This document shows, piece after piece, positions 42,501-63,982 of a stretch of 64,000 bases of DNA (position 1 is its first letter; each line of letters opens with the position of its first letter). Origin of the DNA: Nitrosopumilus sp. (GTDB lineage Archaea > Thermoproteota > Nitrososphaeria > Nitrososphaerales > Nitrosopumilaceae). The DNA is taken from positions 1,911,849 to 1,975,848 of the forward strand of contig CBDBLX010000002.1 in the NCBI GenBank assembly GCA_965207445.1. Direction: 5' to 3'. A program made the translations under genes and the position numbers. The notes beneath the pieces were generated by a model. The model worked only from the letters and a program-made list of their open reading frames with translations. It was not told the DNA's origin and did no database searches.

Positions 42501-45500
42501 TGCGTGCCGGCCGCAAGTTGATGCGTGATGCTCATCTGGTTGTCATACTGTGGCAGTTCAGTGCCGTCTGCGCTCCAGGATATAGATGGTATCTCAATGT
42601 TGTCAGATATCTGGGCCTCAAACCGTATGGGCTGCAGCGAGTGGAATGAACCGTCGGCAGGCGATATGATGTCTACAGAAGGCAATATCCCGTCAACAGA
42701 TATAGTACTGGTAAACGCCAGCGGTCCGGACTTGCTAACAGGCGGCTGCGGGTTTATCTGCATTGTCAGCTCGGGGGGCGGGAGGTCAGGTAGTACGTCT
42801 CTGAATGGATGTGATGCTGCCTTTATGGCAGCACCGTCAGGAAACCTCAGCGAGTCAGCAGACACATAGTTGAGATCCATAGTATAGTCACCGTCTTGCA
42901 CCAAATATGAAAAGACGAGTTGCGCAGTACCGTTGCCACCATCATATCTGGCAGTTCGGTCAGCCGCGCCCGTCTCCAGATCTAGCACGGGTGTGCCCGT
43001 GACATGTACAGGCTCAGAAAAGTGAACATTAATGAACACCTGCCTGCCTGCGCCATACGTCTCCTCAGTCTGGGCGCCTGACACACCATAAGCAAGGATG
43101 TCTCTGTCCCAGAACAGCACGTACACGGCCCCCCTCGCGCCCACGGCAACCTCGGGGGCGCCGTCGCGGTCCAAGTCACCTATAACAGCAAAGGATAAGC
43201 CAAACTCGCGGACGTCATCGCCTATTGCATGCATCGCCCGGTTAATCTCATATGAGCCCTTTATACTCCCATCTGAGTTCAAAAGTAGCATGTGGACGGT
43301 ACCGGCGTTGTTCACACCATCTCTGTCTGCCCCAGGGGCCCCTACTGCGACATCCGGCGTCCCGTCGCCGTCCAGATCGCCCGCGGCCCCGACGGACAGT
43401 CCAAAGTCGTCGTTTGCCCGTATCGCCGGGGCATTTTCTGACGAGGCGTCTAGTTTTAGGACAGACTTTACAGATATCGTGCCGCCACCGCCACCACTGC
43501 GCTCAAGCAGTATTACATGCACGGCCTCATCGTACCCCGAGCTCACATTGTCGTGGTTAAAGGAGCTGTCCGAGGGATGCGATCCGGACACCAAATCTAT
43601 CATGCCATTACCGTCGATGTCACCGACGGCAGCAAGCGAGAATCCCAACCCTGCGCCGTCTGCGAGGTCAAAGCCGCGTGCGCTGTCGCGGTTTATCTCG
43701 GCCACGTGCTGCGCGCGCACCTGCTGGCCGCCTGACCCACGGTCCAGCGAAAGTATATGTATAGCGCCACTAGCACGGGGGCCGTCCCCGTTGGCTCCGA
43801 CTGCCACATAGACAGTCTTGTCAAAATCCAGGTCGCCCAGAACTGCCAGCGCGGACCCAAAGTTGTCGCTCACCCTTATGCGACCCTCCTGGCCCCGGAC
43901 GCTGGGATCAAGGCCTGCCAAATTCTGCGGGCCAAAAGAAGATGTATGGTTTACCGTGCCGTCTGGGTTTAGCAATCGCACCTGGATCTCTCCGCATGTG
44001 CCAGGATTGCATACGGGGTTACCAGCTTCCGGGACGCCCACCAATATATCCGTGGTGCCGTCACGGTTGATGTCTCCTATGTTGACAGCGGATCTTCCAA
44101 ACCCCGCAGAGTGAGTGGCTTGACCGACGCTGCTCTTGACTGTGCCGTTTGGGTTCATAAATGCGATGTGAAATCCAGAAGGCGTACGGTCAAAAATATT
44201 CCGAGTGCCGTACGATCCCACGGCAAGATCCGGGGTGCCGTCGCGGTTCAGGTCTCCTAGCCCAGCCACTGCCGTATTGTACACCGGAGCCCTTTTACAG
44301 ATATTTATGTCCAGGGAAAAGCATTCATACCCTCTATGATGTAGTATTCGGTGCACCTCAAACAGTTGTATCTCAGTGCTGTCGCCCAACTCTTCGCTGG
44401 GCCCCGGCTTTGGGGCATAAAGCGGGATCAAATGCACCACACCCAGTTTAGCGCCCGTATAATTGTACGTGGGCTCACTGACTACAAGGTCGGTCACACC
44501 GTCGCCGTTAAAGTCAGCGGCCGCTATCTCGGTGCCAAACCCGTCTCTCTGGTCCATTATCATGATGTGCTCTGTGTCGTTGTTGATTGTAATTGTGGAC
44601 TTTGGGACACCGTCGCCGCCGAGGTACACCAGATGTATCGAGTTGTCATCCACAGAGGTCGCTTCACCCGGAGCCCCCACGGCTATATCGTAGAATCCAT
44701 CGCCGTCCAGATCGCCCATTCCCGTCACAGAGCTGCCAAAGTTGGAACGAGAGGTCTGGCGCGGGCCAAACTCGTCGCTGCTAGTTATTTTGTGCAACAG
44801 GTTCAACGACGGGGAGCCGTTTGCATATCCTAGTGACAGTAAGAATACAGAGCCGTCCTTGCTTCCGTTGTGAGGTTCACCCGGTGCCCCTACTGCAATC
44901 TCCGTGGTGCCGTCGCCGTTGACATCACCCACGTTTGCAACTGACGTGCCAAATTTGATATCAGGTCCAGTAGTATCTCCACCCACCGATCTGTAGGTGA
45001 ACTTGTATGTAGATTTGATAGAGTTTGCGCTGTTCATTAAAATTACATGTATGGCGCCCTGATTTGCCACCGTCGAACCGAGCGGGTCATCAAAGTCATC
45101 ATTAGGGGTGCCCACCACCACATCAGGAACGCCGTTACCATCAATGTCGCCAGCAGACGCCACAGAGGCGCCAAATTCATCAAACTGTTCAAGGATGGGT
45201 CCTCCGTTCGCATTGTGTATCGCAAATGAGGACTTTAGTGTGCCGTTGCTGTGAAGCAGTACCACGTATACGGTGCCCGTATTAGGTCCACTATCGTCAT
45301 CTCCGGTAGCGCCCACCAGTATATCCATAACACCGTCGCCGTCCATGTCGCCGGCAGGTGCCACAGAGGTGCCAAAATAGTCATGTGAACCCCGGACCGG
45401 CTGCTTTTGGTCCAGTATGACTTGTACTGATTTTATAGCATACCCACCATCTTCCATCAGTATTATAAACACGGCGCCCTCGTTCTCATCACTACTGTCT

Positions 45501-47512
45501 TCAGTTGGGTCATAGTCCTTTGCCCCCACTGCAAAGTCAACGGCACCGTTGCCGTCTATGTCCCCTATGGATGCCACAGATGAGCCAAAGTCACTGCCCC
45601 TCTCAGTCGGAAAGAGAGAAGAGGACGTCACATTGATGGTAAACGTGCCGGCGGCAATAGGGGCGGCAATAGGGGCGGCAATAGGCACATATCTGGGCGG
45701 CGCGGTGTCTATTCCAAACTCCGAGAGTCCGACCTTGACTACATACGGAAGATCGCTGTCGGCCACAAGCACGTAATCACCAATAACTGCAATATCATAC
45801 GGGTCTCCGAACAGATCGAGTCCTGAGCCTTCATCTCCGAACTGCGAGATGAATAGTCCCGAGGGTGTAAACACCGACACCCGTTGGTTTGAGGAATCCA
45901 CGGCAAATACGCGCGATCCGTCAAATGCCATACCACGCACGGCGGCAAACTCACCTTGGCCGGTACCGCTACGACCAAACTCGGATATATAATCTCCAGA
46001 ATGATCAAACACCTGCACTATATCCCGGTCGCGGTCTGCCACGTAGATGTGCATATTGTTGACTGCAATGCCAGTGGGATTTCGGAACTGGCCGTTACCA
46101 AAGCCGTTGCCGCCGAACTTTGTGACAAAGGTGCCATTGGTGTAAAATATCTGAACATCGTTTCGCGTGATATCCGATACAAAGACATGCGTAGAGTTGG
46201 CAGCAATGCCAGTGGGGTTTCGGAACTGGCCGTTGACAGTACCGGTGCCGCCGAACTTTGTGACAAATGCCCCAGTGTCGGCTCGGAACACATGGATGAG
46301 ATCCCGCGCGTTGTCTGACACAAAGACAAACTCAGAGTTGGCCGCGATGGCAGTAGGGCTTCGGAACTGGCCATTTGCATTACCCTGACTGCCAAACTTT
46401 GAGAGATAGTTGCCGTTATAATCAAGTACTTGCACGTCCCGGCGCTGAGAATCCAGCACAAATATCTTCTCAGCATTGGCCGTAATTGAGCGTACAGTCT
46501 GGAACTGTCCATCGCCGCTACCCTTGATTATATCCCCGGCAAACGCATACGGATAATTGTTAAACACCCTGACCCTGTCGCCGCCCCCTGTATCTGCCAC
46601 AAAGGTGCGGAATTTGATAATTGTAATGCCAGTCGGATCGTGTAGTTGACTCGCGGTGCCGGCAGTATTGTTAAATGTGCGCACATATTTTCCGGACAGA
46701 TCAAATACCTGAACGTCGCCGCGGCCAGAGTCCATCACCATAATGTTCGCCGAGTCTACCTCGATGCCCGTGGGGTCTTGGAATTGGCCGTTAGCGGTGC
46801 CGGTGCTGCCAAAGCTCGAGAGATGTTTTCGCGTGTTGGCATCAAAGATGTGCACCATGTCGCCGGCGGTATCCGTCACAAAGACGTGAGTGGCGTTGGC
46901 CGCGACCGCGTGTGGATCGCGCAAGGAGGAGTGGGACAAAGTACCTGCCGATGATCGGATTTTATCTTCATTGTTGGTGGTTACGTCGAGTACCGTGACG
47001 TAGTCCCGTTGTGTGTCCGTCACAAAGATGTGCGTGCCGTTGGAGGCCATGCCTAGAACATCATTAAAGTAACCTCTCGGAGTCTCACCCGCCTTCTGTC
47101 CAATCTTTGGGTAAACGAACAGTTGTTTCCCTGAATGATCATATACTTCGAGCCGCTCATAAAGGACGAAATTGAAATTAAGTGCACTGTAGTCGGTCAT
47201 CACAAACACCTTATCGTGGGTGACTGTAAGGACTCGTGCTTGTGCAGAGACGTCAAACTCCGAGACGAGTGAATCGCGTTCGTCAAATATGAAGACTTTG
47301 CCGGTGGATTCTGTTTTGAGGGCATCTAGCACAAACACATGCGTTGAGTTGGAGTCAATATCCTGCAGGTTTTCAAAATTACGGACAAAGTTGTACTCAA
47401 ATGAGGATGCGTGCGCCTCATTACTACCACCACCACCACCACCAGTATCATCATACATTACAAACAGAGCAGACGTAATGATAATAACAGACATCATAAC
47501 TAAGAGACTCAT
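12537..47512 (-). CDS. Giant multidomain surface protein/adhesin (~11,658 aa after repairing two indels)
   Basis: The 4351-, 3918- and 3485-aa ORFs overlap and join mid-domain. Sister repeats reveal a 1-bp insertion at ~34531 and a 2-bp deletion at ~22867; the corrected 34,977 bp is exactly 11,659 codons. Domains: N-terminal hydrophobic segment, NHL repeats, FG-GAP, FN3, DUF5011-like and cadherin/Ig-like domains, and a Pro/Thr/Asp linker. Confidence 0.85.
15737..24354 (-). repeat. Coding tandem array: 11 near-identical 780-bp units (260 aa = 2 DUF5011-like Ig + 1 FN3)
   Basis: Units start at 15738, 16518, 17298 ... 22758, 23536 and 24316. The unit carrying the deletion is 778 bp. Confidence 0.97.
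24570..25900 (-). repeat. Internal duplication (Ig + NHL propeller block); partner copy at ~34970-36290
   Basis: Near-identical DNA and protein (TDRILVSDRDNKNVQIFSPDGSYLGKLRGHTF; GVAVNSTGHVFV). Boundaries are approximate. Confidence 0.85.
27560..33830 (-). repeat. Duplication of a ~2.9-kb block at ~3.39-kb spacing (Ig + NHL propellers + HYR/DUF5011 + FN3); third copy of the NHL core at ~45720-46900
   Basis: ACTCTATGGTATAATCAGTAATTACAG at 27561 and 30951. The peptide ITANAEKIFVLDSQRRDVQ occurs three times. Confidence 0.88.
33893..34770 (-). repeat. Three 288-bp tandem FN3 units
   Basis: CCCGTGCCTGCC at 33893, 34181, 34469 and 34758 (spacing 288, 288, 289). The 289 spacing marks the 1-bp insertion. 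Confidence 0.93.
43100..45600 (-). repeat. FG-GAP (integrin-alpha beta-propeller) repeat region of the giant protein
   Basis: About a dozen FG.SVA..GD(I/L/M/V)(D/N)GDG..D..VGA(P) motifs, in two clusters. Confidence 0.9.
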
Positions 47513-50580: not shown

Positions 50581-53049
50581 ATGTCGTACCAAAGTTTCGA
50601 TCTTTACAAAGAGATCATAAAAGACACGGACCACGATTATCACAAAAAACAGGTAAAGGATAGGTTAGAGCCATACCTGAAATATCTCCAATTGGTAACC
50701 AAACACTACAGAGAAAATCCCATAGTGTTTAATTACATATATGATCAACCTCAGGGAATCAAACCAAAGCGAAAGATACGACAGGACGAACCCGTATGGA
50801 TTCAACTGGGTGAAATGAGCGATGAAGATCGACGATATATTCTAGACGGGGACCATGTAAAACATGTGCATGAGGATGTGGACAAAGATCAGGATGATGA
50901 AGTAAAAATAAGTGTCATACAACGCGACGTTGCCGGAAGATTGCAGCTGGCGCGCAGGCCGAGAACTAAAAAGCTGAGAGTATATCGCATTATATACACG
51001 ATAATGACGCAGATAAAGGCCGTAAAGTCTTTGCTGCATCGACCAAAACCGGAGAATTCCCCTCTGCTAAAGCTCTTTTACGACAGAGACCACGTGGCGT
51101 TGGAAGACATGGAAGAACAACACATAGACAAATGGTTTGTTTTGGACGGGCGCGATGGCTCTGACCGGCAGAAGGAATTCGTGGAAAAGGCTCTCGCCAC
51201 TCCGGACTTTGGATTTTTGGAAGGGCCGCCAGGCTCGGGCAAAACTACCGTACTCTGCGAGCTGGTTCACCAGCTCGTGCATCAGGGAAAACGCGTGCTG
51301 TTCTGCGCGTCAACCCACATAGCGGTGGACAACCTGCTGGAAAAGATCACCAACGAGTACACAAGAAAACCTACAGACTCCAACATCATCCCACTGAGGG
51401 TGGGTGTCTCGGAAAAGATTTCCGACCTCGTACGCGGGTACACGTACGACACCTGCATAAAGACCATGCAAGAAAAGATATCCAACCATCTTGAGGACGT
51501 TTCCGACAAAAGCGAGGCGCAAAAGGCCCTGTATGAGCAGCTCCGATCGGACGATACTATAGGAAACATAGCACGTGACTGCGCAAACCTTGTGTGTGGT
51601 ACGACCATGGGCATACTCCAGCATCCCGACATCAAAAACGGCAACGCGGGTATGTTCGACGTCATGATAATTGACGAGGCCTCCAAGACCACGTTTCAGG
51701 AGTTTCTGGTTCCGGCTATGCACGCCAAGCGCTGGATAATAGTAGGCGATACCAAGCAGCTTGCACCCCACACAAGTTCGGAAGAGTTTGGCCTGCATGT
51801 CAACGCATGCATCGGGCGCGAGGAAGGTCAAGCGTGCCTCGACGCGTTTCTAGCCGCCAGTCAAGACCAACGCATCATAGCAACTGTGGAAAGCCAATCT
51901 GCAAAGAATGCCTACAGTCGCCAATGCGACAAACACGGGGTCGCCCTGCATGACGCCGATGACAAGCCGCCGGAGCGCGCATGGAAAGGAATCGTAGTGG
52001 GAACAGCAGATTCCATATCGAAGGCAGACGACGGATTTTTCCAAAGTGTCAATCCCAAGCGCGACATAATCCGAGGGTACGACGAGATACGTGCCCATTT
52101 AAATCGACAAAAGCGTAGAATACCGCGGGTGATACATCCTATGAAGAATGGTTTGGACAAAGACCTGACATGGGGGGCGCAGATGGCGTGGCGGATCATA
52201 TCACTGTCCGGACACGAGAGCGGCTCGGAACACTATGCCAGTCAAGCGATCGAAAAGCTCATGCCGGCAGACGACAAGGATACACGTCTCAGACTGGAAG
52301 ATGTCAAAAAGATCGCGCTACCGTCGATTTTACATCTGCTTCAGCATGGCTATGGGACAGGAGAGAATACGATCATGACGGAAGGTATTCCGGAACAAGA
52401 CTTTGCAAAACGGCACGTGCTTTTGCAGCAGCAGTACAGAATGCACCCGGAGATAGCAAAATTTCCCAGGACATACGTGTACAAGGGACGAGCGCTTGAG
52501 ACTCCAAAAGCAGTAGGATTCGAACGCGAATGGTCATACAGGGAATACGAAAAAAGATCCGTCTGGATCGACGTCAAGGATGCATCCCAGAACAGCTCTG
52601 AAGCCGAGGCCGAATGTATAATGAATGAGCTGGAAAAGTTTTACGGATTCGCGATCAAAACCAAGCCAGGCCGCGGCCTGCCGTGGGAGGTGGCAATATT
52701 GACGTTTTACACAAAGCAACAGCAAACCATACTGTCCCACATCAAAAAGATCGCTCGGGCCAAGAACGGGTACGAATTCGCGCTGATGGATGACAGGAAG
52801 GAGATCGTGACCGTCCAATGCCGCACGTTGGACTCCTTTCAGGGATACGAGGCCGACGTGGTTTTCTTGAGCATCGCAAACAACCACCCGACACTCTTTC
52901 TTGAAAATCCCAACCGCATCAACGTCGCGATAACAAGGGCACGGTACCAGAACGTGATCGTGGGGGACAAAAAAGCCATGAGTAGTTCGAGATCGTTGAT
53001 GGGCAGGTTTGCCATGAACACGCGTGTACACAGGGGCTGCAAATCATGA
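50581..53049 (+). CDS. UPF1/DNA2-like superfamily 1B helicase (AAA_11/AAA_12)
   Basis: Motifs EGPPGSGKTT, ASTHIAVDN, IIDEASK, VGDTKQL, QYRMHPEI, TLDSFQG.EAD and NRINVAITRAR. Large insertion between motifs III and IV. Confidence 0.93.
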   Translation: MSYQSFDLYKEIIKDTDHDYHKKQVKDRLEPYLKYLQLVTKHYRENPIVFNYIYDQPQGIKPKRKIRQDEPVWIQLGEMSDEDRRYILDGDHVKHVHEDVDKDQDDEVKISVIQRDVAGRLQLARRPRTKKLRVYRIIYTIMTQIKAVKSLLHRPKPENSPLLKLFYDRDHVALEDMEEQHIDKWFVLDGRDGSDRQKEFVEKALATPDFGFLEGPPGSGKTTVLCELVHQLVHQGKRVLFCASTHIAVDNLLEKITNEYTRKPTDSNIIPLRVGVSEKISDLVRGYTYDTCIKTMQEKISNHLEDVSDKSEAQKALYEQLRSDDTIGNIARDCANLVCGTTMGILQHPDIKNGNAGMFDVMIIDEASKTTFQEFLVPAMHAKRWIIVGDTKQLAPHTSSEEFGLHVNACIGREEGQACLDAFLAASQDQRIIATVESQSAKNAYSRQCDKHGVALHDADDKPPERAWKGIVVGTADSISKADDGFFQSVNPKRDIIRGYDEIRAHLNRQKRRIPRVIHPMKNGLDKDLTWGAQMAWRIISLSGHESGSEHYASQAIEKLMPADDKDTRLRLEDVKKIALPSILHLLQHGYGTGENTIMTEGIPEQDFAKRHVLLQQQYRMHPEIAKFPRTYVYKGRALETPKAVGFEREWSYREYEKRSVWIDVKDASQNSSEAEAECIMNELEKFYGFAIKTKPGRGLPWEVAILTFYTKQQQTILSHIKKIARAKNGYEFALMDDRKEIVTVQCRTLDSFQGYEADVVFLSIANNHPTLFLENPNRINVAITRARYQNVIVGDKKAMSSSRSLMGRFAMNTRVHRGCKS

Positions 53050-53762
53050 ATAGGATAGAGATAGACACGGAGATCAATCTGAAATGCTACATAGTATATG
53101 CCGAGATATCCGTACCCGCACGCCGATATATTTTACCAGTGCTATTACATGTGAGGGATATGGAAGACGAAGCCGATGCAAAATCACTCTCATCTGAGCT
53201 CTTTCCTGGAATGGAGTCGGTAAGCAAGAGGCTACTCGAGATTTGCAAAAAGGAGAAGATGGTAGAAGAGTATGATGGTCAATACTCCATATCACGGGCA
53301 GGCGAGAATGCCATCGAAGACGACAAGGTCTTTGTACGTAGCCCGGGTCGGATGTACAAGATATACTATACCGACTCTACAATAATCCCGGAAGAAAGCA
53401 GAGTGGTTCGACTAGATACGGATCCGGAAGAGGCAGGATACGACCCGAACAAAACAGTAGGGGTGTGCGACCTACCGTGGCATCTGACAGATCTAAAATG
53501 CAGCATCCTAAAACCCCTGTTTGGGTGCATGCAGGGCGAGTTTAGAATCGATAGCATACACCACCGGGCCAAGGAACTGGAACCGGATCACATGACACTG
53601 TCGCTCCGCCTCGTGGATGACTCCGTGACGGGCCCTGATCTATATGAAAGAAGGAATGACCATAACATCTCCGGAAGATTCCACGTTTCGGCCAAGATGG
53701 CTGGGGAGACCCGCGAGATGTCCGACCGCGACGGATCTATTGTACTTCCCCCCACCCCATGA
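53046..53762 (+). CDS. Helicase-coupled hypothetical protein with probable winged-helix domain, possibly 3'-truncated
   Basis: ATGA overlap with the helicase. The segment KRLLEICKKEKMVEEYDGQYSISRAG is wHTH-like. The 3' end runs into a direct repeat and a MITE. Confidence 0.65.
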   Translation: MNRIEIDTEINLKCYIVYAEISVPARRYILPVLLHVRDMEDEADAKSLSSELFPGMESVSKRLLEICKKEKMVEEYDGQYSISRAGENAIEDDKVFVRSPGRMYKIYYTDSTIIPEESRVVRLDTDPEEAGYDPNKTVGVCDLPWHLTDLKCSILKPLFGCMQGEFRIDSIHHRAKELEPDHMTLSLRLVDDSVTGPDLYERRNDHNISGRFHVSAKMAGETREMSDRDGSIVLPPTP

Positions 53763-53795
53763 GGAGGCGTTCCCGCGAGATGTCCGACCGCGACG
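53710..53795. repeat. Perfect 24-bp direct repeat pair
   Basis: CCCGCGAGATGTCCGACCGCGACG at 53710-53733 and 53772-53795. Confidence 0.9.
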
Positions 53796-53924: not shown

Positions 53925-54243
53925 CGCACCAACCTCACGAAGACCACCTAAAGAGTAATGCGTCCAATTGTCAAATTAGAAGATGAACTGAGTTTTGAAG
54001 TAAAGGAATGCAACATAACCATCCCGATAGCAGCAACAACAACAACAACAACAAAAAGAAAAAGATAAACTAGTAATATAAAATCACATTATTTCTCAGG
54101 TACATCTTCTCTCAACATGGTTATCGCTACGTGTAAGTACACATCGTAGCCATCCATCTCAATCTTGAATTTTATTCCATTCTTTGGTGTATGATCGTAC
54201 ATATTGCAACACACCACCATAATTTTGAACATAAAAATACACA

Positions 54244-54351
54244 TATTGTGATCTCCTGTAACGTTTTCACAATTGGACTTTGCCACATGTGATTATTTCA
54301 GGCACGAAATCACAAAAATTCACTGTACAGAAATTTATGCCCGTCGCTATA
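54244..54351 (+). repeat. 108-bp inverted repeat, left arm (partner 60378-60485)
   Basis: TATTGTGATCTCCTGTAACG...CGCTATA; 7 mismatches (all transitions) against the reverse complement of the right arm. Confidence 0.93.
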
Positions 54352-54473: not shown

Positions 54474-54678
54474 CTAGTGGATGACGACGTTACTGACTGC
54501 GACCTGTCCAGCACAAGGCCGGGCACACCACCTGTGAAGTTTTTTGCGCGGCCAGCCAACCCTCTCCATTTCCTCGTCCAGATATGTGAACAGGTTTTTT
54601 CTACTGCGTCTCAGGCGCGCCGTGTTTATAACGATGAAGTGGACACCGGAATCAGCGTAGTGCCTGTTCCTCCTTCTG
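54474..54678 (-). pseudogene. C-terminal half of the viperin-associated PD-(D/E)xK nuclease, separated by IS66
   Basis: Read from the TSD it gives RRRNRHYADSGVHFIVINTARLRRSRKNLFTYLDEEMERVG. This matches the paralog at 63470-63982 (RLRNGHYAKAGIPCVVLKSSEIRSSRTCMAERLDRELERLG). Confidence 0.85.
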
Positions 54679-55183
54679 GCAAGCGTTCACCCCCCCTCCC
54701 CCTAGCTAGGTACAGGGCAGCCACTTACGGTGAGCGAATGCGTGGCTATGCGTGCTCATGGCACGTAAGGTGGAAGAGAGGTTACGCGTGTGTCATTGCA
54801 GCTAGAATACGTAGGGTTTGATTGACTTGCAAATGTTCTCGACCCGATTGGTGGTGTAGTGGTGGTGTAGTTGTTGTGTAATTTGCCAGCTTGTCATACC
54901 CTATCAAAAATCTGTATGTTAGTGGATCTACAGTGCGCTTTGCACCCGGACAATTCCAATAAAATCGCTCATACTTAATAAATGTAACTGCGCTCTTACC
55001 AAAAGTTACATATAGGGCCATCCAAATGGAATTATTATGATTAGAACCAAGAGGATGACATTATGAATTTACTGAGGGCTGTTATCAATCTATTGTTTTC
55101 AAAAAAGCGAACCATTCAGTTTCAGAGGCGATGGGACATGCAGACAAGAAAGGCAGAGTTGCATGATATGACGATGAGAGGGT

Positions 55184-57325
55184 GTGAGTGTAATGAGTAA
55201 TGCTTCTGCCACCGCACGTGAGAATAAGATTTTACGCGATAAACTCGCGCACATGTGGAAGTTTGTAAACGTCATAATGGAAGCATGGGGGGAGCAGGCT
55301 GCCATGTTCATCGATGAGATCAAGAGACTTGAAGGCAAAGTCGAGAGTCTGAAAACATACTGTGATGAACTCAAAGAACAACTGCAAGATGCAAAAAGGC
55401 TTTTAGCAATGCATGAGAACTATAACAACCCCGACAGGGGGACGAAGACTGCCCATGATAGGCAGAAACACAGACAGGCGTTGAGAGTCGAGAGTGAAGA
55501 GAATGTGCAGTGCGCCATGGATGTGGAAAAGGAAAAAAGCAGTAGAAAATCCGGCCTGCGGCATCGCGGCGGCCAGCCCGGTTCAAAGGGCATGTCGTGT
55601 GGCCTAAAACCAGACAGGAAACTAGATGATTTATGCGCGCCCGAAACATGCGTCCGGTGCGGCAGAACTGACATCATACATTTAGGATTCCTATGGAAGA
55701 TGGTACTTGAAATACGCGAGTATGGCGACCGGTTCTGCACAGACCCAGGACCATTTGAGAATCCCAAAGAGATGGTGGAGAATTTGCACATGAACGGCGC
55801 ATTGTTTGCCTATATGGAGGCATCAGTTCCTGCAATCTGCTTGCAGTGTGAGGTGATCATCTACCCAGAGACGCCGTCGATCCCAGGATCGTCGTGCGGA
55901 CCGATCTTGCGCGAAAAGATCATGAACCTGCACGGGCAAGTGCCACCCGTGCAGCGCATACACAATATACTTGCCGCAAACCATCATACTGAGATCGGCA
56001 CAGGTACCATCTCAAAGTGCCTAAAGGCGATATCACAACACGCTACGCATGACTGTTTGTGGGTAAAGGCACCCCGTGATATGATCGAGGATGTAAAGGC
56101 GGCCTATGGTACTGATACAAAGAACTCAGAGACATCTACTAATGAAATGGTCGCATATACTGAACAAGATGATAATGGTACAGAGACAATCATAATGACT
56201 GCACACTCTGAGCCTCCTGTTGCCATGTTCTGTCAACAACCTGCAGCAGCAAAACCACCAAAACTAAAATCCGAAGACTCTCCCCTACCTGAGATGGCGC
56301 CTGTACCGGATACTATACCTGACACACACATGCACAGCGTCCTCCCGCCACTATTCACCCAGATATACGAGATGATCACAATGGCCCCCAATATTATGTG
56401 GGACGAGTCAAATGCAAAGGTAGCAGGACACCGTCGGCAGACGCTCGTACTGCTCTGTCCCGGAATTGCCACCCTGATAAAAATTACAGACAGTAAATCA
56501 AAAAATCTTATACAATACATGTTCCCGGATCTGCTTGGCAGACCTCTCCAGGCCGACATGTATCTTGCAGGCAATGCGTTTGATGGTGACATACAGACAT
56601 GCCGTGTACACTTGTGGCGTCGAGGCGAGTCGTTGGCAGTATTGCATGGCATCCACTCACCAGAGCAGACGTACTCTGAAGAGCATCTCAATATATTCAG
56701 ACTCTCAAAACGCGCAGGTGAACGCATAACCCAGCTGGCCGGCGGCCCGCTCACATCTATCTGCGAGGTTGACAGTGTGATTCGAGCCATACCTGGACTT
56801 TCACAAACAATAAGTGATGAGGTCGACGTACTAAACACCCGCATGCTCAAATTGATAGACGCGTACCGGTATGGTGAGGTCTCTGATGAAGACACGCGCA
56901 AATACGCCACCTCACTTGAGAACGCACTACCATACATGTTTACATTTCTGTGGCATCCGGGCATGCAAGGTCACACAAATGACATTGAGCGACTCATCAA
57001 GAAATGTAACGTATTGCCGCGCAAGATGCAAGGGGGGCTTCCAGACTGGACGGCTGCAAAAACGCAGGCCAACCTGCAGACCATACATGCAAACTCTGCC
57101 CTGTGGGGCGTATTCTCAGGACAATTGGTATCAGGATATCGCGGCAGTTGGAAGCCGCCGCCATCAAATTCAATCACAATAATGTCCCCGTCGTCGTCAC
57201 CATCACAGAGACCGCGTCCACATGTCACCGAAAAATGTATCACGAAATCATCTGATCCATTAATACAGGCACACGACCTCATCTGCATACCAAAATCACA
57301 AAATGTCAAGGTCGCTGCCGCATGA
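55184..57325 (+). CDS. IS66-family transposase (TnpC-like)
   Basis: N-terminal coiled coil, GGQPGSKG, CxxC..CxxC zinc finger, and motifs WDES, QAD, QTCRVHLWR and TNDIER. Confidence 0.85.
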   Translation: MSVMSNASATARENKILRDKLAHMWKFVNVIMEAWGEQAAMFIDEIKRLEGKVESLKTYCDELKEQLQDAKRLLAMHENYNNPDRGTKTAHDRQKHRQALRVESEENVQCAMDVEKEKSSRKSGLRHRGGQPGSKGMSCGLKPDRKLDDLCAPETCVRCGRTDIIHLGFLWKMVLEIREYGDRFCTDPGPFENPKEMVENLHMNGALFAYMEASVPAICLQCEVIIYPETPSIPGSSCGPILREKIMNLHGQVPPVQRIHNILAANHHTEIGTGTISKCLKAISQHATHDCLWVKAPRDMIEDVKAAYGTDTKNSETSTNEMVAYTEQDDNGTETIIMTAHSEPPVAMFCQQPAAAKPPKLKSEDSPLPEMAPVPDTIPDTHMHSVLPPLFTQIYEMITMAPNIMWDESNAKVAGHRRQTLVLLCPGIATLIKITDSKSKNLIQYMFPDLLGRPLQADMYLAGNAFDGDIQTCRVHLWRRGESLAVLHGIHSPEQTYSEEHLNIFRLSKRAGERITQLAGGPLTSICEVDSVIRAIPGLSQTISDEVDVLNTRMLKLIDAYRYGEVSDEDTRKYATSLENALPYMFTFLWHPGMQGHTNDIERLIKKCNVLPRKMQGGLPDWTAAKTQANLQTIHANSALWGVFSGQLVSGYRGSWKPPPSNSITIMSPSSSPSQRPRPHVTEKCITKSSDPLIQAHDLICIPKSQNVKVAAA

Positions 57326-57485
57326 CTTTTTAATATAATCAGATTATTGTAAAACTTGCCCCATATTATGCCATTTTTGTACCGTCCACACACTCCCCAC
57401 CGTTGACACTACTAACACAATAAACAAACTGGCCGTGCCGCCACCATCCAATCCGATGTTTTTGCCTTGAACAACGTGACGCTGT

Positions 57486-57521
57486 ATGTTACCTGCATGT
57501 TACCTGCATGTTACCTGCATG
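57486..57521. repeat. 11-bp tandem repeat (ATGTTACCTGC)x3 inside the IS66 right end
   Basis: Three perfect copies followed by ATG. Confidence 0.9.
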
Positions 57522-57620
57522 GCCACCATATCACATACCATAACGCCTGTCCGATATCTGTCTAAGGTGGCAGCGTAAGTGGGTGAGAGTTGAGGGGAGG
57601 GGGAGGGGGTGAACGCTTGC

Positions 57621-57981
57621 TCCTTCTGTCCCTTGCCGCAACGTCCCTTGATTCATGTATGCTGCCGTCCAGCTCAATTATCAGAACCAGTTCTCCGTCT
57701 TGGTCGGTCACTACTATGTCTGGAGTGTGGATGAGGCGCGTTTTTGACAGGGCGGATATGTCTATGCGGTTCATGTGCTCCCCATGTATCTTACGGCCGC
57801 GGCGGGTAAACTCCACGGTACACTCTTGTCTTATCTGACCCATCCGTATTCTGTAGTATTTCCTAAGATGCTTTACAATGGCGAATATGGGGCCGCTGTC
57901 ACTGTATCTCTCATCCACGTGCGCGTCGCGTGTGCGCTTGTTCCTCCTAGTCCCAGTCGTAAAGACCCCCCCTTTCCTCAA
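57621..57981 (-). pseudogene. N-terminal half of a PD-(D/E)xK (DUF559/Vsr-like) nuclease directly downstream of viperin
   Basis: Motif HTPDIVV...IIELDGSIH, cut at the IS66 TSD. Start uncertain (TTG 57981 or GTG 57918). Confidence 0.8.
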
Positions 57982-58816
57982 ATTTGTTTGTGTCGATCCT
58001 CACGTCCTTCAGGGCATCGGCTATTCCGACTTCCAAAATCGGGCGACTGTACGAGTACCTGCCGTCCACGTTGTCAAAGAACCGCCCCAATGGATCTACC
58101 ATAGCATAGCTGCCAGTCATCATGTCGTTGTCCTCCGGTATGACTACTATGCCCTCCCGTTCTATCCGCCTGTGCCGTTCCACATACGCCTTGAACTGGT
58201 TCGCTGTTACTTGGAAGCTGTGCATGGACTCGTCGTTCTGTCCCGCCACCGTCAACGCTTGCATGATCTTCCACCTTTCTGGCTCTGCTGCCCTGATGAA
58301 CCCGGACATGTCCTCCTCGTGGTTGTATAATGTGACCACGGTGTTGATCTTTAACCTGACTCCGTGCATCTTTATGGATCTGGCAGTCCAGAGGTACTCT
58401 TCTGCAGTTATGGAGCCCAGACTCGTGGCGCGTCCGGACATCTCATTTGTTACGGGCCTGATACTGTCTACACTGAGCGCAACCCAGTCCAAGCATCGGT
58501 GCATGCTTTTAAGCCAGTCCTCCGTCATCCTGCTCCCGTTGGTAACTATGGATGTGGTCATGCCACCGTACTTGGCTTCCTTGATTAGATCATCCAGCCC
58601 GGGATACAGCATAGGCTCTCCACCTGCAAAGTTGATCTTTTCATATCCCGCGTCTGCAAGCAATCTGACGATCTCCACGACCTCTTCTGATCCGAGATTC
58701 TTGTGTGACAGATTCGCGGCATAGCAGTGGCCGCAGCTCATGTTGCATGCTTGCAACAGATGATAGTTTACCGACGGAATTGCCACTGTTGTCCGGTCGG
58801 ATATCTTTTTATTCAT
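57947..58816 (-). CDS. pVip: Prokaryotic viperin (RSAD2-like antiviral radical SAM enzyme, ddhNTP synthase)
   Basis: SVNYHL...CNMSCGHC, KINFAGGEP, SIVTNGS, SVDS, KINTVV, RWKIMQ.L...GQN, EDNDMMTGSY.MVDPLGRF and C-terminal FEERGGLYDW are all viperin-family hallmarks. Confidence 0.93.
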   Translation of the reverse strand: MNKKISDRTTVAIPSVNYHLLQACNMSCGHCYAANLSHKNLGSEEVVEIVRLLADAGYEKINFAGGEPMLYPGLDDLIKEAKYGGMTTSIVTNGSRMTEDWLKSMHRCLDWVALSVDSIRPVTNEMSGRATSLGSITAEEYLWTARSIKMHGVRLKINTVVTLYNHEEDMSGFIRAAEPERWKIMQALTVAGQNDESMHSFQVTANQFKAYVERHRRIEREGIVVIPEDNDMMTGSYAMVDPLGRFFDNVDGRYSYSRPILEVGIADALKDVRIDTNKFEERGGLYDWD

Positions 58817-58850
58817 ACATGATATCTAACACATACAGCTTGATGTATAT

Positions 58851-59155
58851 TCTCAAGTGGGCCACATAGTGTAAAATCGTGCGGAACTTGTATACCTGTT
58901 CATTTGACCCGCACCGCAATTATCTCAAGTGGGGCCACATAGTGTAAAATCGTGCTGAACGGCAAATTTGCCCAATCCAAGTTGCGCTGAGGCGCTTGTC
59001 TGTATTCGTCACAGTCAGACTCTAAGCCTACTACCCGTGTGTACGGATTGGAATGTGCCGTGTGTGCCAGAGTTATTTCTACAACCCCAAGCAGACGAGG
59101 CCGCGACCATGAAGAACAACTGAGAATGTGCTATGTATGCCAGAGTTATTTCTAC
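58851..59155. repeat. Two pairs of direct repeats (37-38 bp, period 72; 32 bp, period 73) in the viperin/wHTH divergent intergenic region
   Basis: TCTCAAGTGGG(G)CCACATAGTGTAAAATCGTGC(G/T)GAAC at 58851 and 58923; GAATGTGC..TGT.TGCCAGAGTTATTTCTAC at 59051 and 59124. Confidence 0.88.
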
Positions 59156-59325
59156 GAGGGTGTTGTACTACAGGCTGTCAACCATGTGGTTGTCGCGTAA
59201 TTCGCCTCCATACTGACTGTGGTGGCTTTACATCCGGGCCGCTGAAACCAGTCTGAAGGCATCTTACGTACCGGCCTTACCAATATCGTAAAATTTTTAG
59301 ATGCTGCGAATCTGGCAATGGTGTA

Positions 59326-60369
59326 ATGGATGAGTCTCCCGCATATTATGACCATATAATGGAATTGCTGAAAACGCATGATGAACATCTGACCGTAGCC
59401 GACATCGTAAAACTGGCCGACAAGAATACCTTTTCAACTCGCAGGGCACTTAAGCGATTAATAAAAGACGGCATAGTTATGCGTGAGAGAATAGGCAAAA
59501 CAGATCATTACTACCCGGCGGAAGATTCTGCCGTCGAGATGGACAAATTTAATAACCTGATGAAAAAGCTAGATGATACTGTAGAAAACCTGAAGAAAGA
59601 TTTTCCAACATATCCTTCCAACATGTTGTATTTCATAAACGAGATAAGCTCTTCCGGTGTTACCAAGATAGAATCCATAAAAGACCATGTGAAGGTTGTA
59701 ACAACCGGTTACAAAGAACAACGGATAATATATGAAAAAGTCACTAGAGACATCAGATCTATGTGTCATAGGCACGTAAAAAATCCTCTTCTGATGAAGC
59801 GTCTGCTCTCATACGAGTCCGACGCCTACCAAGTCTTTCAAGAAACCGTCAAAAAGCGCCTAAGATTGGCAAAGAAACGAGACAATCTACACGCAAGTTC
59901 CCGAAAAAAAATCGCGAATCATATCGAAAAACTAGCCTACATAATGGACACGTTGGTTTATGATGCAGATCATGTAAAAGAATGCTTGGAGTTTGGTGAG
60001 GAAGTTCCCTACGACTACAAAGACTCGCGTGATGAATCAAGGGGAATACTGATCAACCTTGAACAAAAACGCGACATGCTCCGAGACAGTCTAGAGTCTG
60101 CAAAGCGATGGACAACTGCCTACAGGAAGGGCCACTCCGATGCAGTATTGGAAAACAAGCATCCGTCAAGTGAATTTGATGAAGCGGCCGGAAAACTGTC
60201 GGAGATGCAACAAGGCTTGAGAGACCTTGACATACTGATCCGGACAGGTATTGAGAAATCCATAGCGGAGGAAAAGGATTACGAATTGAGCGCTGTGCTC
60301 ACGGAAGTAGAGAAAAATCTGCAGGAATATAAGCGGAACTTGAGAGAGATTGCAGACGATACCGGTTAA
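59326..60369 (+). CDS. Winged-helix protein with long coiled-coil C-terminus (putative regulator)
   Basis: N-terminal IMELLK...LTVADIVKL..KNTFSTRRALKRLIKDGIVMRERIG..DHYY wHTH pattern, followed by heptad-rich helical sequence. Confidence 0.75.
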   Translation: MDESPAYYDHIMELLKTHDEHLTVADIVKLADKNTFSTRRALKRLIKDGIVMRERIGKTDHYYPAEDSAVEMDKFNNLMKKLDDTVENLKKDFPTYPSNMLYFINEISSSGVTKIESIKDHVKVVTTGYKEQRIIYEKVTRDIRSMCHRHVKNPLLMKRLLSYESDAYQVFQETVKKRLRLAKKRDNLHASSRKKIANHIEKLAYIMDTLVYDADHVKECLEFGEEVPYDYKDSRDESRGILINLEQKRDMLRDSLESAKRWTTAYRKGHSDAVLENKHPSSEFDEAAGKLSEMQQGLRDLDILIRTGIEKSIAEEKDYELSAVLTEVEKNLQEYKRNLREIADDTG

Positions 60370-60377
60370 AACCCAGT

Positions 60378-60485
60378 TATAGCGACAGGTATAAGTTTCC
60401 GTACAGTGAATTTTTGTGATTTCGTGCCCGAAATAATCACATGTGGCAAAGTCCAATTGTGAAAGCGTTACAGGAAATCACAATA
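60378..60485 (-). repeat. 108-bp inverted repeat, right arm
   Basis: Reverse complement of 54244-54351; ends 1 bp before the ISH3-like element. Confidence 0.93.
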
Positions 60486-60486
60486 A

Positions 60487-61864
60487 CAGTAATTCGCAAT
60501 GTATTTTATATGATTTTATTTGAATAATCTACAATGTCGTTAAACGTTGATGATCATACTTGATCAGATCAAATAGAAAGTATAATATGTGGGAACATTT
60601 TAGTACCTCTGATTAAGTATGAAAAATGAGATACTAGAACATCAATATGAATTAGGACAAGTAAATTATAAAGTTTTACGAAAACGATTCAACGATCTCG
60701 GATTAAACATATCAACCAGATATAACCGCAAGTATGTGGTGGATGATTATCTTGGTACTTACTACCTTGTCGCTCAACAACATGTGCGTAAATGCAACAA
60801 CTCACAAAAGAAAACGCGATAAAACTAACTGTTTTAGAAAAAACGAGCGTATAAGCATACCATCTGAAAATACTGTGCTCAAATGCCTAAAGAGTGCAGA
60901 TCTAGAGCAAGTAAAACAATGGAGTGACGAGAACGTCAAAACTGTTTAACAATGCCAGAAAACACAACATGCTCAAAAAAGGCAGGCACTATTGTAATTG
61001 ATATGGCCGGATAAAAATATTATGGCAAGGCACTCAAACCTGAGATGCTAAAAACAAAGCCCAAAAATGGCACCGCGATTTCATTCATTTATGACAACAC
61101 AAATGCCAAATCAAGCAGGTAATTGTTTGCGCATCGTGTGACCAGTAATGACAAAATGGTCACAATTATGCGTAAAATCATTGAAAAATTAATTCGAGAG
61201 GATGCACGTCCGGAACTTGGCCTCTTTGATCGAGGTTTTTACAACGTTGCATGCATAGATGAACTTTTGCGCCTGCGCCTGTCTTTCATAATGTGGGCAA
61301 TCAAAAATAAGCGCATACAAAAACACATTTTAAAAGTTCACAACAAAAAGAGAAAAACTGCATCCGTCATTGAGATGCGTGACAAAAACAAAAAAGCAGT
61401 CAAATTTACATTACTTGTCGTCAAGAAAAAAAATAATGCCAAAAAAACTGATGACATAGTTGATCAGTATGTAGCATTTGCCACAAATATGAAAATCACT
61501 AGCAAAAGCAAACTCATCAAAACCATCCCAGAGACTTATTGTAGGCGTCAGATAATAGAGACGAGACATAGTGATAAAAAACACGACTTCAAAGACAACT
61601 AGCAACGCCTTGCAGCTTCGATTACTGTTGATATTTTTTGAATGTTATTATATGGTTTATGGGTAATGGCAATGTACGAAAATTACGGCTGACTTGTAGA
61701 TGAAAAATTATTCACAATGGATTATTTATGGATTCAATTGCCGGATCAATCAGAAGACTGCTTCGGCGGGAATTGGAGCACGGTGGTTCCTTGCCATTGT
61801 AAATCTATCGCACTGCATAATTAGAAATAAGATCATTAAAAATTGAGCACATTGCGAACTACTG
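60487..61864 (+). mobile_element. ISH3-family (archaeal IS4-like) element with decayed transposase
   Basis: 16-bp IRs CAGTA(A/G)TTCGCAATGT at 60487-60502 and 61849-61864. Fragmented ORFs with LFDRGFY, FATN and IPETY.RR..IET motifs; several stops and frameshifts. Confidence 0.82.
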
Positions 61865-62210
61865 ACATACAAAACTAGAATACTCGTTTGGGGGCAAACT
61901 ACATAATGCGGCGCCAGACCTGTTTACATTTGTCAAATATCCGGGCATGCCACCTACCAACAACAAATTCGAACGAACACTGCGGTGGCGCGTCGTGATT
62001 CACAAAAAGATTCGTCAGATGTTTCGCAGTACAACAGGAATGGAAGTTTATGGCATATTGATGTCGTGCATGATGACAGGTTATTATCAGGACAAGGATC
62101 TTGTAAATAATATCCATGACATTATCATGGCAAGCTAAATCATTCACCAAATTTCATCACATAGCAGTAGATGTGTGTCGAGGTGTACATGTAGGGGGTT
62201 TAACTGTTAC
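61865..62210 (+). pseudogene. 3' remnant of a second IS66-family element
   Basis: MPPTNNKFERTLR.RVVI.KKIRQ.FRS..G is an IS66 C-terminal motif. Right IR GGGGGTTTAACTGTTAC ends at 62210. Confidence 0.75.
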
Positions 62211-62228
62211 GATCTAAAGCAGAGTACA

Positions 62229-63467
62229 TCAGATCAGACTTGAGGCAATATCTGCCATTCTAGAATGTTCACTACGCGAGAACCAGCTGCTCTCCACGAC
62301 TATAGGGATGCGCGCCCCTGTAGACTCGACGTACCCCCATTTCTCCCGTTCTGTGTGGATTTTTGTGCCCCGAAGTAGCATCAGCGGCCATGCGCGCACC
62401 TTGGGCACTCCCCGTTCCAAGCACCACTCTACAGAGTCACGAAAGCGCTCCACCGTCTGGAAGGGAAGCCCGTAGATCAGGGAGACCTCGTAAGGTATCC
62501 GCCGCCCGTTCAGTTTTGTGATGACATTCTCCACCGAGTCCATGTTGTTTGGCCTGCCGACGGCCCACGCCTCGTCGTCATGAACCGTCTGCAGGCCGAA
62601 CTCAAGCGTGACATCAAGCGGTTCGACCGCGTCCAGAAAGACGTCGGTAACCAGCTCAAAGCGACACTGTAGCGACAGATGAGCCCTAATGCGAATTTCC
62701 TTCAGACAGTCCAGTAGTTCCATCGCTCGCTTGACATCTGTGTTGAAGATCGGATCCAGCACGGCAATCTTGCGCGTCCCGGCATCGCGAAACGCGGACA
62801 TCTCGCGCCGCAGGCGTCCCGTCGCCAGATTTGCGTTGCGAAGGCGGGCTCCGGGCTGCTTGTGCTGGCAGAACGTGCAGGTAAACAGACAACCGCGCTG
62901 AGTCTCCCACCGTACAAAGTCGCTTATCGGAGAGGTGCCGTCAAGGTGCGGCGAGTGCAACGCGTTTAGCGGAAAGTCGGCCCTAGTGCAAAGGTCTGGC
63001 ATTCCTGCAACATGGATTCCATGCAAGCCATTCTCCGCGTGTCCTACGGCCAGCGACACCATCGCAAGCTCTCCGTTCCCGCGTACAAAATAGCGGGCTC
63101 CGGGATACAGTTGCTCAAGTCGTCCCGGCCCTGTGTATGAGACCTGCGGCCCCCCGAGCACCACGTCGACCTTGGGGCAAAGTGCGCGCAAAAGCACATG
63201 TACCTCCGGCTCGCACCACACAAAGGCACTGATTCCGACCAAGACTTGGGCCCCAACCTCAGAGATGGCTTCCGTGACGCGGTCGAGGAAGGTATTCATA
63301 GAGAATTCCGGTTTATTTACCGCGTCCGTGACGATCCTGACATAACTCCCATAGGCACGGAGGGACGAAGCGATCGATGCGGCGCCCAGTCCGAAGGGTG
63401 GATCCCCTTTCCTCAACCAGTCCAGTGAGACCAGAATAACCGGACGCGGTGGCACTGATCGTGGCAC
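62229..63467 (-). CDS. Radical SAM enzyme with N-terminal B12-binding-like domain
   Basis: ETQRGCLFTCTFC (CxxxCxxC), VVLGGPQ, RGNGE, EFGLQT and LIYGLPFQT. Likely start GTG 63467, two bases after the upstream stop (412 aa). Confidence 0.87.
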   Translation of the reverse strand: MPRSVPPRPVILVSLDWLRKGDPPFGLGAASIASSLRAYGSYVRIVTDAVNKPEFSMNTFLDRVTEAISEVGAQVLVGISAFVWCEPEVHVLLRALCPKVDVVLGGPQVSYTGPGRLEQLYPGARYFVRGNGELAMVSLAVGHAENGLHGIHVAGMPDLCTRADFPLNALHSPHLDGTSPISDFVRWETQRGCLFTCTFCQHKQPGARLRNANLATGRLRREMSAFRDAGTRKIAVLDPIFNTDVKRAMELLDCLKEIRIRAHLSLQCRFELVTDVFLDAVEPLDVTLEFGLQTVHDDEAWAVGRPNNMDSVENVITKLNGRRIPYEVSLIYGLPFQTVERFRDSVEWCLERGVPKVRAWPLMLLRGTKIHTEREKWGYVESTGARIPIVVESSWFSRSEHSRMADIASSLI

Positions 63468-63469
63468 TG

Positions 63470-63982
63470 TCAGGGTCCTCCTGTTCGGTTTGACCTGGCC
63501 CGGGCGAGAATGGACTGGATGTGCAGTCCAGCCGGTTTTCTCATTCCGAGCCTTTCCAACTCCCGGTCCAATCTCTCGGCCATGCACGTCCGGCTTGAAC
63601 GTATCTCGGAGCTCTTCAGGACGACGCACGGAATGCCGGCCTTGGCGTAGTGGCCGTTCCGTAGTCTGTTCCTTATTGCAAGAGCCGCCGACTCGTGTAT
63701 CATGCCGTCCTGCTCTACCACGAAGAGTAGTCCACCCGCGCCGTCAGTCACCGCGAGGTCGGGGGTGTGGACTAGCCCTTTTATCCACTCGGTCTGTCCG
63801 ATCTTGTGCGTTCCGAGCAGCTTGTAACCTCCGGCACGAAACAGTACACGGCATTCGATCAGTATTTGGGAGGCCCGTATCTTGTGCTCCTTTCTCAGGT
63901 ACTTCTTGATCTTGAAGACTATGTCAGAGTCGAGTCGTTCGCCACCCAATCCGTTCCGAAATTTCTTTGGATTGACCTTCAT
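63470..63982 (-). CDS. PD-(D/E)xK (DUF559/Vsr-like) nuclease, intact paralog of the viperin-associated gene
   Basis: HTPDLAV...VVEQDGMIH...RN.HY..AGI pattern. A TGA lies immediately before its ATG, so the operon probably continues beyond the window. Confidence 0.78.
   Translation of the reverse strand: MKVNPKKFRNGLGGERLDSDIVFKIKKYLRKEHKIRASQILIECRVLFRAGGYKLLGTHKIGQTEWIKGLVHTPDLAVTDGAGGLLFVVEQDGMIHESAALAIRNRLRNGHYAKAGIPCVVLKSSEIRSSRTCMAERLDRELERLGMRKPAGLHIQSILARARSNRTGGP

Follow-up and report, generated by a model that had tools for sequence, protein, structure and literature searches.

Why should two unrelated radical S-adenosylmethionine (SAM) enzymes of one archaeal genome each be joined to a small nuclease gene of the same family? 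The question is raised by the right-hand part of a 64,000-nucleotide stretch of DNA from the ammonia-oxidising archaeon Nitrosopumilus sp. (the window; G000:C2:1911849-1975848 of the 2.6-Mb genome G000), in which a prokaryotic viperin is followed by one nuclease gene, here called nucA, and a B12-binding radical SAM gene is preceded by its paralog, nucB. An earlier note on this DNA had seen in the arrangement a new defence architecture, with the nuclease as dedicated partner of nucleotide-modifying radical SAM enzymes. Based on the evidence collected here, the locus is understood as an antiviral island built by insertion sequences (IS), with two separate radical SAM defence enzymes that would each be co-expressed with a nuclease add-on derived from proviruses, a reading to which we assign a probability of about one half.

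The viperin belongs to the prokaryotic viperin (pVip) family, scoring 297.9 bits with the NCBIfam model NF038283 (curated cut-off, 180), matching the PADLOC pVip model PDLC02903 at E 2.3e-87 and showing the CxxxCxxC and GGE motifs. Viperins turn nucleoside triphosphates (NTPs) into 3′-deoxy-3′,4′-didehydro-NTP (ddhNTP) chain terminators, and the enzyme of the window would be expected to do the same and to be antiviral. Directly 3′ of it, as the earlier note had described, lies nucA, which carries HTPD...ELDGSIH and begins with TTG at 57981, its intact orthologs P0154, P0404 and P0405 beginning at the matching residue. The gene is split at 57620 by a 2,942-bp IS66-like element with 22-nt inverted ends and an identical 8-bp target duplication; the transposase reaches 58 bits with model NF033517, under that model's cut-off, and a second full copy of the element (96%) lies elsewhere in the genome. 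Beyond the element, the rest of nucA occupies 54670-54474, and no stop interrupts the rebuilt empty-site frame; judged from the interruption, the viperin-linked nucA is a pseudogene in G000. No joint skipping the element was seen among the joints shown (15 of 19) in four runs, three of which are one sample and maybe the source of the window, and no RNA dataset was listed as holding the locus. Intact viperin-nuclease pairs are found in relatives (G336; P0278 with P0154). Among the 301 genomes of the family, five have a viperin over the cut-off, and the nuclease adjoins those of G000 and G336; the viperins of G320, G135 and G350 are without it. Fusion of viperin and nuclease was considered and rejected, the two viperin homologs of ~410 aa having no nuclease domain, and the hidden Markov model (HMM) of the nuclease matched none of 240 listed radical SAM and viperin homologs (lengths searched, 0.55-1.75x).

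The second enzyme is a homolog of PDC-M51A, matching the PADLOC model PDLC04689 over residues 8-411 of 412 at E 7e-144, with the Pfam domains PF02310 and PF04055 both over cut-off. Its start, a GTG at 63467, follows the nucB stop by 2 bp, just as had been noted, and nucB is identical to the N-terminal half of nucA at 44% over 105 aa and to the empty-site frame at 43% over 145 aa. A PADLOC check of the locus had been recommended; it returned pVip and PDC-M51A, so that the B12 enzyme is already a catalogued candidate and the architecture loses its claim to be new and uncharacterised. The PDC systems, PDC-M51 among them, are predicted candidates according to the available text of Payne et al. 2024 (10.1101/2024.01.29.577857) on their status; the legend of their Fig. 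6E has a radical SAM protein and a deoxynucleoside kinase (dNK) among its examples, 'M51' is missing from the main text, and the panel presumably depicts PDC-M51. Neither M51 nor radical SAM is mentioned in the available text of PMC12988326.

The PDC-M51B model describes a thymidylate-kinase-like protein. Its counterpart does not adjoin the B12 enzyme: model PDLC04690 matches just distant loci of G000, the best a 191-aa thymidylate kinase, and the usual position of PDC-M51B is taken up by a degraded IS stretch (60487-62229). By sequence, the enzyme is therefore an M51A homolog and not a complete PDC-M51. No kinase lies near either pair, in keeping with the earlier remark that none is present, the three genome matches of our kinase HMM lying at least 53 kb away. 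We rejected a kinase or further system gene hidden beyond the 64-kb window end, where the earlier note had advised extending the sequence; a gene here called X, two small open reading frames (ORFs) and then housekeeping genes are found there. We also rejected the missing kinase as a notable trait of the viperin locus, because kinases adjoin only 5% of archaeal viperins and 95% are without one, according to the available text of Shomar et al. (10.1101/2023.09.13.557418).

In metagenomes, the best 80 of 416 confirmed B12-enzyme loci were read, some of them near-duplicates. The kinase HMM, seeded from 11 of these loci, matches 29 of the 80; where the sequence continues for 700 nt or more past the gene, the count is 26 of 57. 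Four of four kinases scanned match PDC-M51B and, more weakly, VakA, which we take to be the viperin-associated kinase. The nuclease is present at none of the 80, with a broader HMM likewise, and at the four closest outside loci, L061-L064, kinase and nuclease are both missing. Clear defence neighbours occur at 5 of 34 loci scanned (97 neighbour proteins; a raw count with no background), namely BREX in L071 and L076, type I restriction-modification (RM) in L073, viperin in L099 at ~0.8 kb from the B12 enzyme, and SoFic in L128, and eight further loci of the 34 have weaker or generic defence matches. The idea that the second radical SAM is an uncharacterised antiviral or base-modifying enzyme is thus upheld in part: given the PADLOC match, the kinase partner and the BREX, RM and viperin neighbours of some relatives, an antiviral nucleotide modifier is plausible, in an enzyme that is already catalogued. 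The predicted structure has TokK, CysS and TsrM as best folds, then OxsB (template modelling scores by query, 0.68-0.79). OxsB acts on a deoxyadenosine nucleotide. By analogy with the kinase-partnered bacterial relatives, the enzyme would most likely make an antiviral nucleotide analog, and its closest folds suggest methylation as the default chemistry. It is patchily distributed (2 of 301 family genomes), and relatives were found neither in the IMG/VR scans nor in plasmids. A protein of ~730-750 aa recurs upstream of radical SAM-kinase pairs (L065:709-2955, L069:3489-5678, L074 and L137), with ankyrin repeats in L065, and could be a third PDC-M51 component or a neighbour.

The nuclease had been assigned to the PD-(D/E)xK type. 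Its nuclease fold is borne out; in place of the canonical PD-(D/E)xK enzymes, it belongs with the His-containing Vsr/EDxHD branch. A structure search with nucB (VIA) gave the I-Bth0305I catalytic domain (3r3p; Z 8.9, root-mean-square deviation 3.1, 96 aligned), RAP domains (Z 8.4 and 7.6) and Vsr (1cw0; Z 6.6), and in the Atlas, viral Vsr/DUF559 clusters come nearest (0.92-0.94); both point to a Vsr-type fold for nucB, whose model has a mean predicted local distance difference test (pLDDT) score of 73.5 and a disordered stretch of 18 residues at its start. Foldseek with nucB found no match under E 0.001, and the Pfam matches are all sub-threshold (DUF2726 and MTES_1575), with none to DUF559. 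The family is small: a search among 1.84 billion yielded 130 representatives at E<=0.001, and no relatives turned up in the IMG/VR scans or, for nucB, in GenBank phages. Across 71 members, conservation of D75, E90, D92 and H96 is 96-99%. These and E43 are present in nucB, in which the last Asp of the series is replaced by Asn105, a position assigned by spacing only; Asp stands there in 22 of 23 aligned close members, nucB alone having Asn (D105N). The residues match by spacing the EDxHD/Vsr series given in the available text of PMC3239194. The nuclease is thus Vsr/EDxHD-like by kind and presumably active as a family, and it is not a homing endonuclease by architecture, being a free-standing single domain of 170 aa with no N-terminal NUMOD/helix-turn-helix (HTH) region, intron or intein. 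No copies other than nucA and nucB were found in G000; nucB may be weakened by D105N, and both copies may be impaired. Against L006, the ratio of nonsynonymous to synonymous substitution rates is 0.27 for nucB, which indicates purifying selection, and 0.20 for the B12 enzyme, all other pairs being saturated.

The surroundings of the nuclease decide how it is to be understood. In the archaeal class, 19 of 401 genomes carry it, and in the genus 9 of 151 do. The close group comprises 14 matches of at least 125 bits in nine genomes, weak matches in G309 and G361 and two fragments being left uncounted. Three of the 14 adjoin the B12 enzyme (G000, G207, G227) and two a viperin (G000, G336); the other nine have genes for NYN (G117, twice), HNH (G135), TIR (G259), an Eco57I-type methylase (G117) or DUF3800 (G317) beside them, or IS or family-less genes (G336, twice; G271). 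Nine distant loci were read, eight from the class and one from the genus scan; none has a radical SAM gene beside it, three have an MCM helicase and three have methylase genes (ParB-methylases), and these loci appear to be provirus-like. Gene X (L001:4295-5545, + strand, 416 aa) lies outside the window, ~310 bp past nucB, and has no Pfam match and no Atlas match above 0.77. It occurs at seven loci in six of the 301 family genomes; the nuclease adjoins five of the seven, three of them without a radical SAM gene, and gene X may be an older partner of the nuclease.

Because the neighbours vary in this way, because gene X accompanies the nuclease also where radical SAM genes are absent, because the B12 family manages without the nuclease in metagenomes while often having a kinase, and because three of the five family viperins lack it and the viperin here is intact beside a broken nucA, we favour the add-on reading. 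Its viral origin is suggested by the viral Atlas neighbours and by the helicase and methylase genes next to the distant members. The purifying selection on nucB and the conservation of D75, E90, D92 and H96 in the family also count in favour of this reading. As proposed, the archaeal lineage would have acquired the nuclease from proviruses, and the gene would be co-expressed with the island gene next to which it happened to become fixed, be it the B12 radical SAM, viperin, NYN ribonuclease, HNH or the genes X and Y. Each radical SAM enzyme would be translationally coupled to its small Vsr/EDxHD-type nuclease, and the two activities would be independent: viperin would supply ddhNTP chain terminators from NTPs, the B12 enzyme, as a kinase-less PDC-M51A, would use cobalamin and SAM to produce an altered nucleotide serving as antiviral analog, and the nuclease would nick DNA on its own as a second layer, not as reader of the modified nucleotide.

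Several observations weigh against this reading. Five of 14 close copies next to radical SAM genes of two unrelated families are far over the expectation for random genes. As an indirect proxy, contig sizes were compared between the nucB clade and the B12 radical SAM homologs: 17 of 25 nuclease clusters, and 41 of the 73 sizes listed for them, agree with a size on the radical SAM side, matching being incomplete with members listed for some clusters only; the link is steady across 54-89% nuclease identity. Among 14 linked pairs, nuclease and radical SAM identities correlate (Mantel rho 0.55, p 0.0008), which shared descent would equally produce. For viperin, the same proxy finds 8 of 67 nuclease contig sizes equal to one of 120 viperin contig sizes, with 0.2 expected; nucA orthologs account for three of the eight, including one whose contig measures 2,852 bp, and two others, of nucB type, may reflect no more than a common island. 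The G336 nuclease start overlaps the same viperin Y-D-W codons as in G000, the nucleases being ~37% identical. The defence-neighbour counts lack a background rate, and the defence role of the nuclease family is presumed. Viperin-linked nucleases are scattered over several branches of the viperin and nuclease trees, whose supports are rough. The junctions of both pairs are conserved in relatives; the nuclease-radical SAM links are real and inherited, yet not exclusive. Viperin, nucB-type nuclease and B12 radical SAM have the contig sizes 29775 and 134609 in common, suggesting co-location of the two enzymes in other genomes.

The first rival reading is a dedicated partner, a nuclease reading the product of nucleotide-modifying radical SAM enzymes, which either nicks viral nucleic acid carrying or stalled by the analog or excises the analog from host DNA, and which takes the operon slot held by the kinase in bacteria. 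The tight conserved junctions with two unrelated radical SAMs speak for such a partner, as do the viperin co-occurrence in several nuclease lineages and the three archaeal B12 radical SAM loci, all with the nuclease upstream and none with a kinase. The Vsr-type active site fits in as well, Vsr being an enzyme that nicks DNA at lesions. Yet the nuclease, far from being nearly always beside a radical SAM gene, is so at 5 of 14 close and none of nine distant loci; the neighbourhood survey that the earlier note had called for revealed the scattered contexts said to speak against a dedicated partner, together with a recurrent radical SAM adjacency. Additionally, the nuclease is absent from all 80 outside loci and the viperins noted above, and in G000 one copy is broken and the other altered beside intact enzymes. 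The ddhNTPs are ribonucleotides, and Vsr-type enzymes act on DNA. We consider a dedicated partner unlikely, if the best placed of the alternatives, and about as unlikely is its most far-reaching form, in which the nuclease was recruited twice in place of the kinase for a 'modify then cut' response, nicking nucleic acid with a ddhNTP or the PDC-M51A product in it, and the B12 enzyme parallels viperin as a maker of antiviral nucleotides. No paper on the nuclease-radical SAM pairing or on PDC-M51 by name was found in the literature covered, which leaves out most subscription papers; a nuclease partner of viperin was likewise not found in the literature searched, and the word 'nuclease' is absent from the available main text of Shomar et al. 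(10.1101/2023.09.13.557418).

Ranking a little lower, and improbable in our view, is a gene serving its own spread or mobility: a stand-alone nuclease, EDxHD-like and of homing type, would propagate itself and drag island genes along, with the radical SAMs as cargo. The I-Bth0305I domain as best structural match would agree with it, as would up to three intact copies per genome and segments of 2-3 kb that carry the nuclease and recur nearly unchanged at separate places in the chromosome (97.8% within G117; 96.1% between G336 and G117). Yet the N-terminal DNA-binding domain of I-Bth0305I (available text of PMC3239194) is missing, the Z of 8.9 is tied with that of a RAP domain, the segment borders read have neither conserved ends nor target duplications, the nuclease co-diverges stably with the radical SAM, and IS elements suffice to explain mobility. 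A B12 enzyme without defence function, an IS-moved methylase of small molecules or macromolecules hitch-hiking as an unrelated pair beside one viperin cassette, has in its favour the natural-product methylases TokK, CysS and TsrM as closest folds, the few metagenome loci with clear defence neighbours and the predicted status of PDC-M51 (available text of Payne et al., 10.1101/2024.01.29.577857), and it is very improbable in view of the kinase partner matching PDC-M51B and VakA, the location within BREX in L071 and L076 and beside viperin in L099, and the patchy occurrence.

The add-on reading also involves the manner in which the island was put together (Table 1). IS elements are dense across the region. 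The cassette of nucA, viperin and HTH gene is bracketed by inverted ends of a 16-copy element, in the manner of a composite transposon, and IS elements probably brought the viperin and B12 pairs together. Contigs from public runs span 57574-60420 and 62288-63255 with 0-8 differences, and the runs may be the window's own source.

Table 1. Features of the island by window position. MITE, miniature inverted-repeat transposable element.
Feature	Position	Strand	Supporting detail
nucA C-terminal part, NRHY motif	54474..54670	-	HMM match G000:C2:1966400-1966525; empty-site frame open
IS66-like element inside nucA	54679..57620	+	transposase 55184-57325; 8-bp target duplication 54671-54678 / 57621-57628
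nucA N-terminal part, 120 codons, Vsr/EDxHD-like nuclease	57621..57981	-	35-nt overlap with viperin end; intact orthologs 166-174 aa, 80-83% identity
Prokaryotic viperin (pVip), 289 aa, intact	57947..58816	-	CxxxCxxC 24-31, GGE at 65; NF038283, PDLC02903
Winged-HTH and helical protein, 347 aa, divergent from viperin	59326..60369	+	weak HTH matches
Multi-copy IS/MITE end, left of viperin cassette	54235..54351		inverted repeat of 60378-60494, 91%
Same multi-copy IS/MITE, other end, right of viperin cassette	60378..60494		16 copies of this end in genome
Degraded IS elements between both pairs	60487..62229		DDE fragment 61123-61602; ~27 related genome copies
B12-binding radical SAM, 412 aa, PDC-M51A homolog	62229..63467	-	CxxxCxxC 193-200; PDLC04689, Pfam; model pLDDT 93
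nucB, 170 aa, uninterrupted Vsr/EDxHD-like nuclease	63470..63982	-	E43, D75, E90, D92, H96 kept; D105N

Other features of the region are recorded in their own right. Four of the five family viperins have, upstream of them, a divergently oriented gene whose start is HTH-like (window 59326-60369; L142:2877-4145; L143:8813-10612; L144:8978-10762), and the divergent genes beside the G320, G135 and G350 viperins show no detectable similarity to the 347-aa protein of the window. The gap between viperin and this gene (58859-59155) has two direct-repeat pairs of 29 and 32 nt, each 73 nt apart, as possible operator sites. Further left, a Superfamily-1 helicase of 822 aa (50581-53762, + strand) has Mokosh MkoA as best match (E 6e-84) and overlaps a family-less 238-aa ORF, possibly a damaged second gene, the end of which falls between exact 24-nt repeats (53710-53733 and 53772-53795). 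The minus-strand ORF at 34457-47512 encodes a surface-type protein of 4,351 aa with, by eye, repeated beta-propeller-like and fibronectin-like segments. Beyond gene X, the two small ORFs (L001:5385-6372, - strand) resemble a PIN-type toxin-antitoxin pair by eye and have no Pfam match.

Lastly, the locus has importance for the standing of PDC-M51A, a predicted candidate which resembles viperin in that some members of its family have a thymidylate-type kinase as partner. The presence of both enzymes in one island, each with a nuclease of the same family, provides independent guilt by association for an antiviral PDC-M51A. If the nuclease did read analogs, a new step in viperin-type immunity would be implied; otherwise, what remains is a new family of archaeal nucleases marking defence-island cargo. 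What is new here is that, within one archaeal lineage, a kinase-less PDC-M51A and a pVip are both coupled to a nuclease. Compared with Vsr, EDxHD (I-Bth0305I) and DUF559 enzymes, the nuclease shares the fold and, judged by spacing and apart from Asn105 of nucB, the E...PD...ExD..xH...D series, and it differs by having no NUMOD/HTH domain, no intron location and, at most loci, no cognate C5 methylase. Like TokK, CysS, TsrM and OxsB, the B12 enzyme has a B12 domain followed by a radical SAM barrel, but it is only 11-20% identical to them, much shorter and devoid of their C-terminal domain. Unlike PDC-M51, the M51A of the window and those of two other archaeal loci have no M51B kinase and carry the nuclease upstream instead. 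The viperin agrees with pVip in its full-length match over cut-off, its Fe-S and GGE motifs and the absence of a kinase, and it departs from pVip as described by the overlapping downstream gene of a Vsr-like nuclease.

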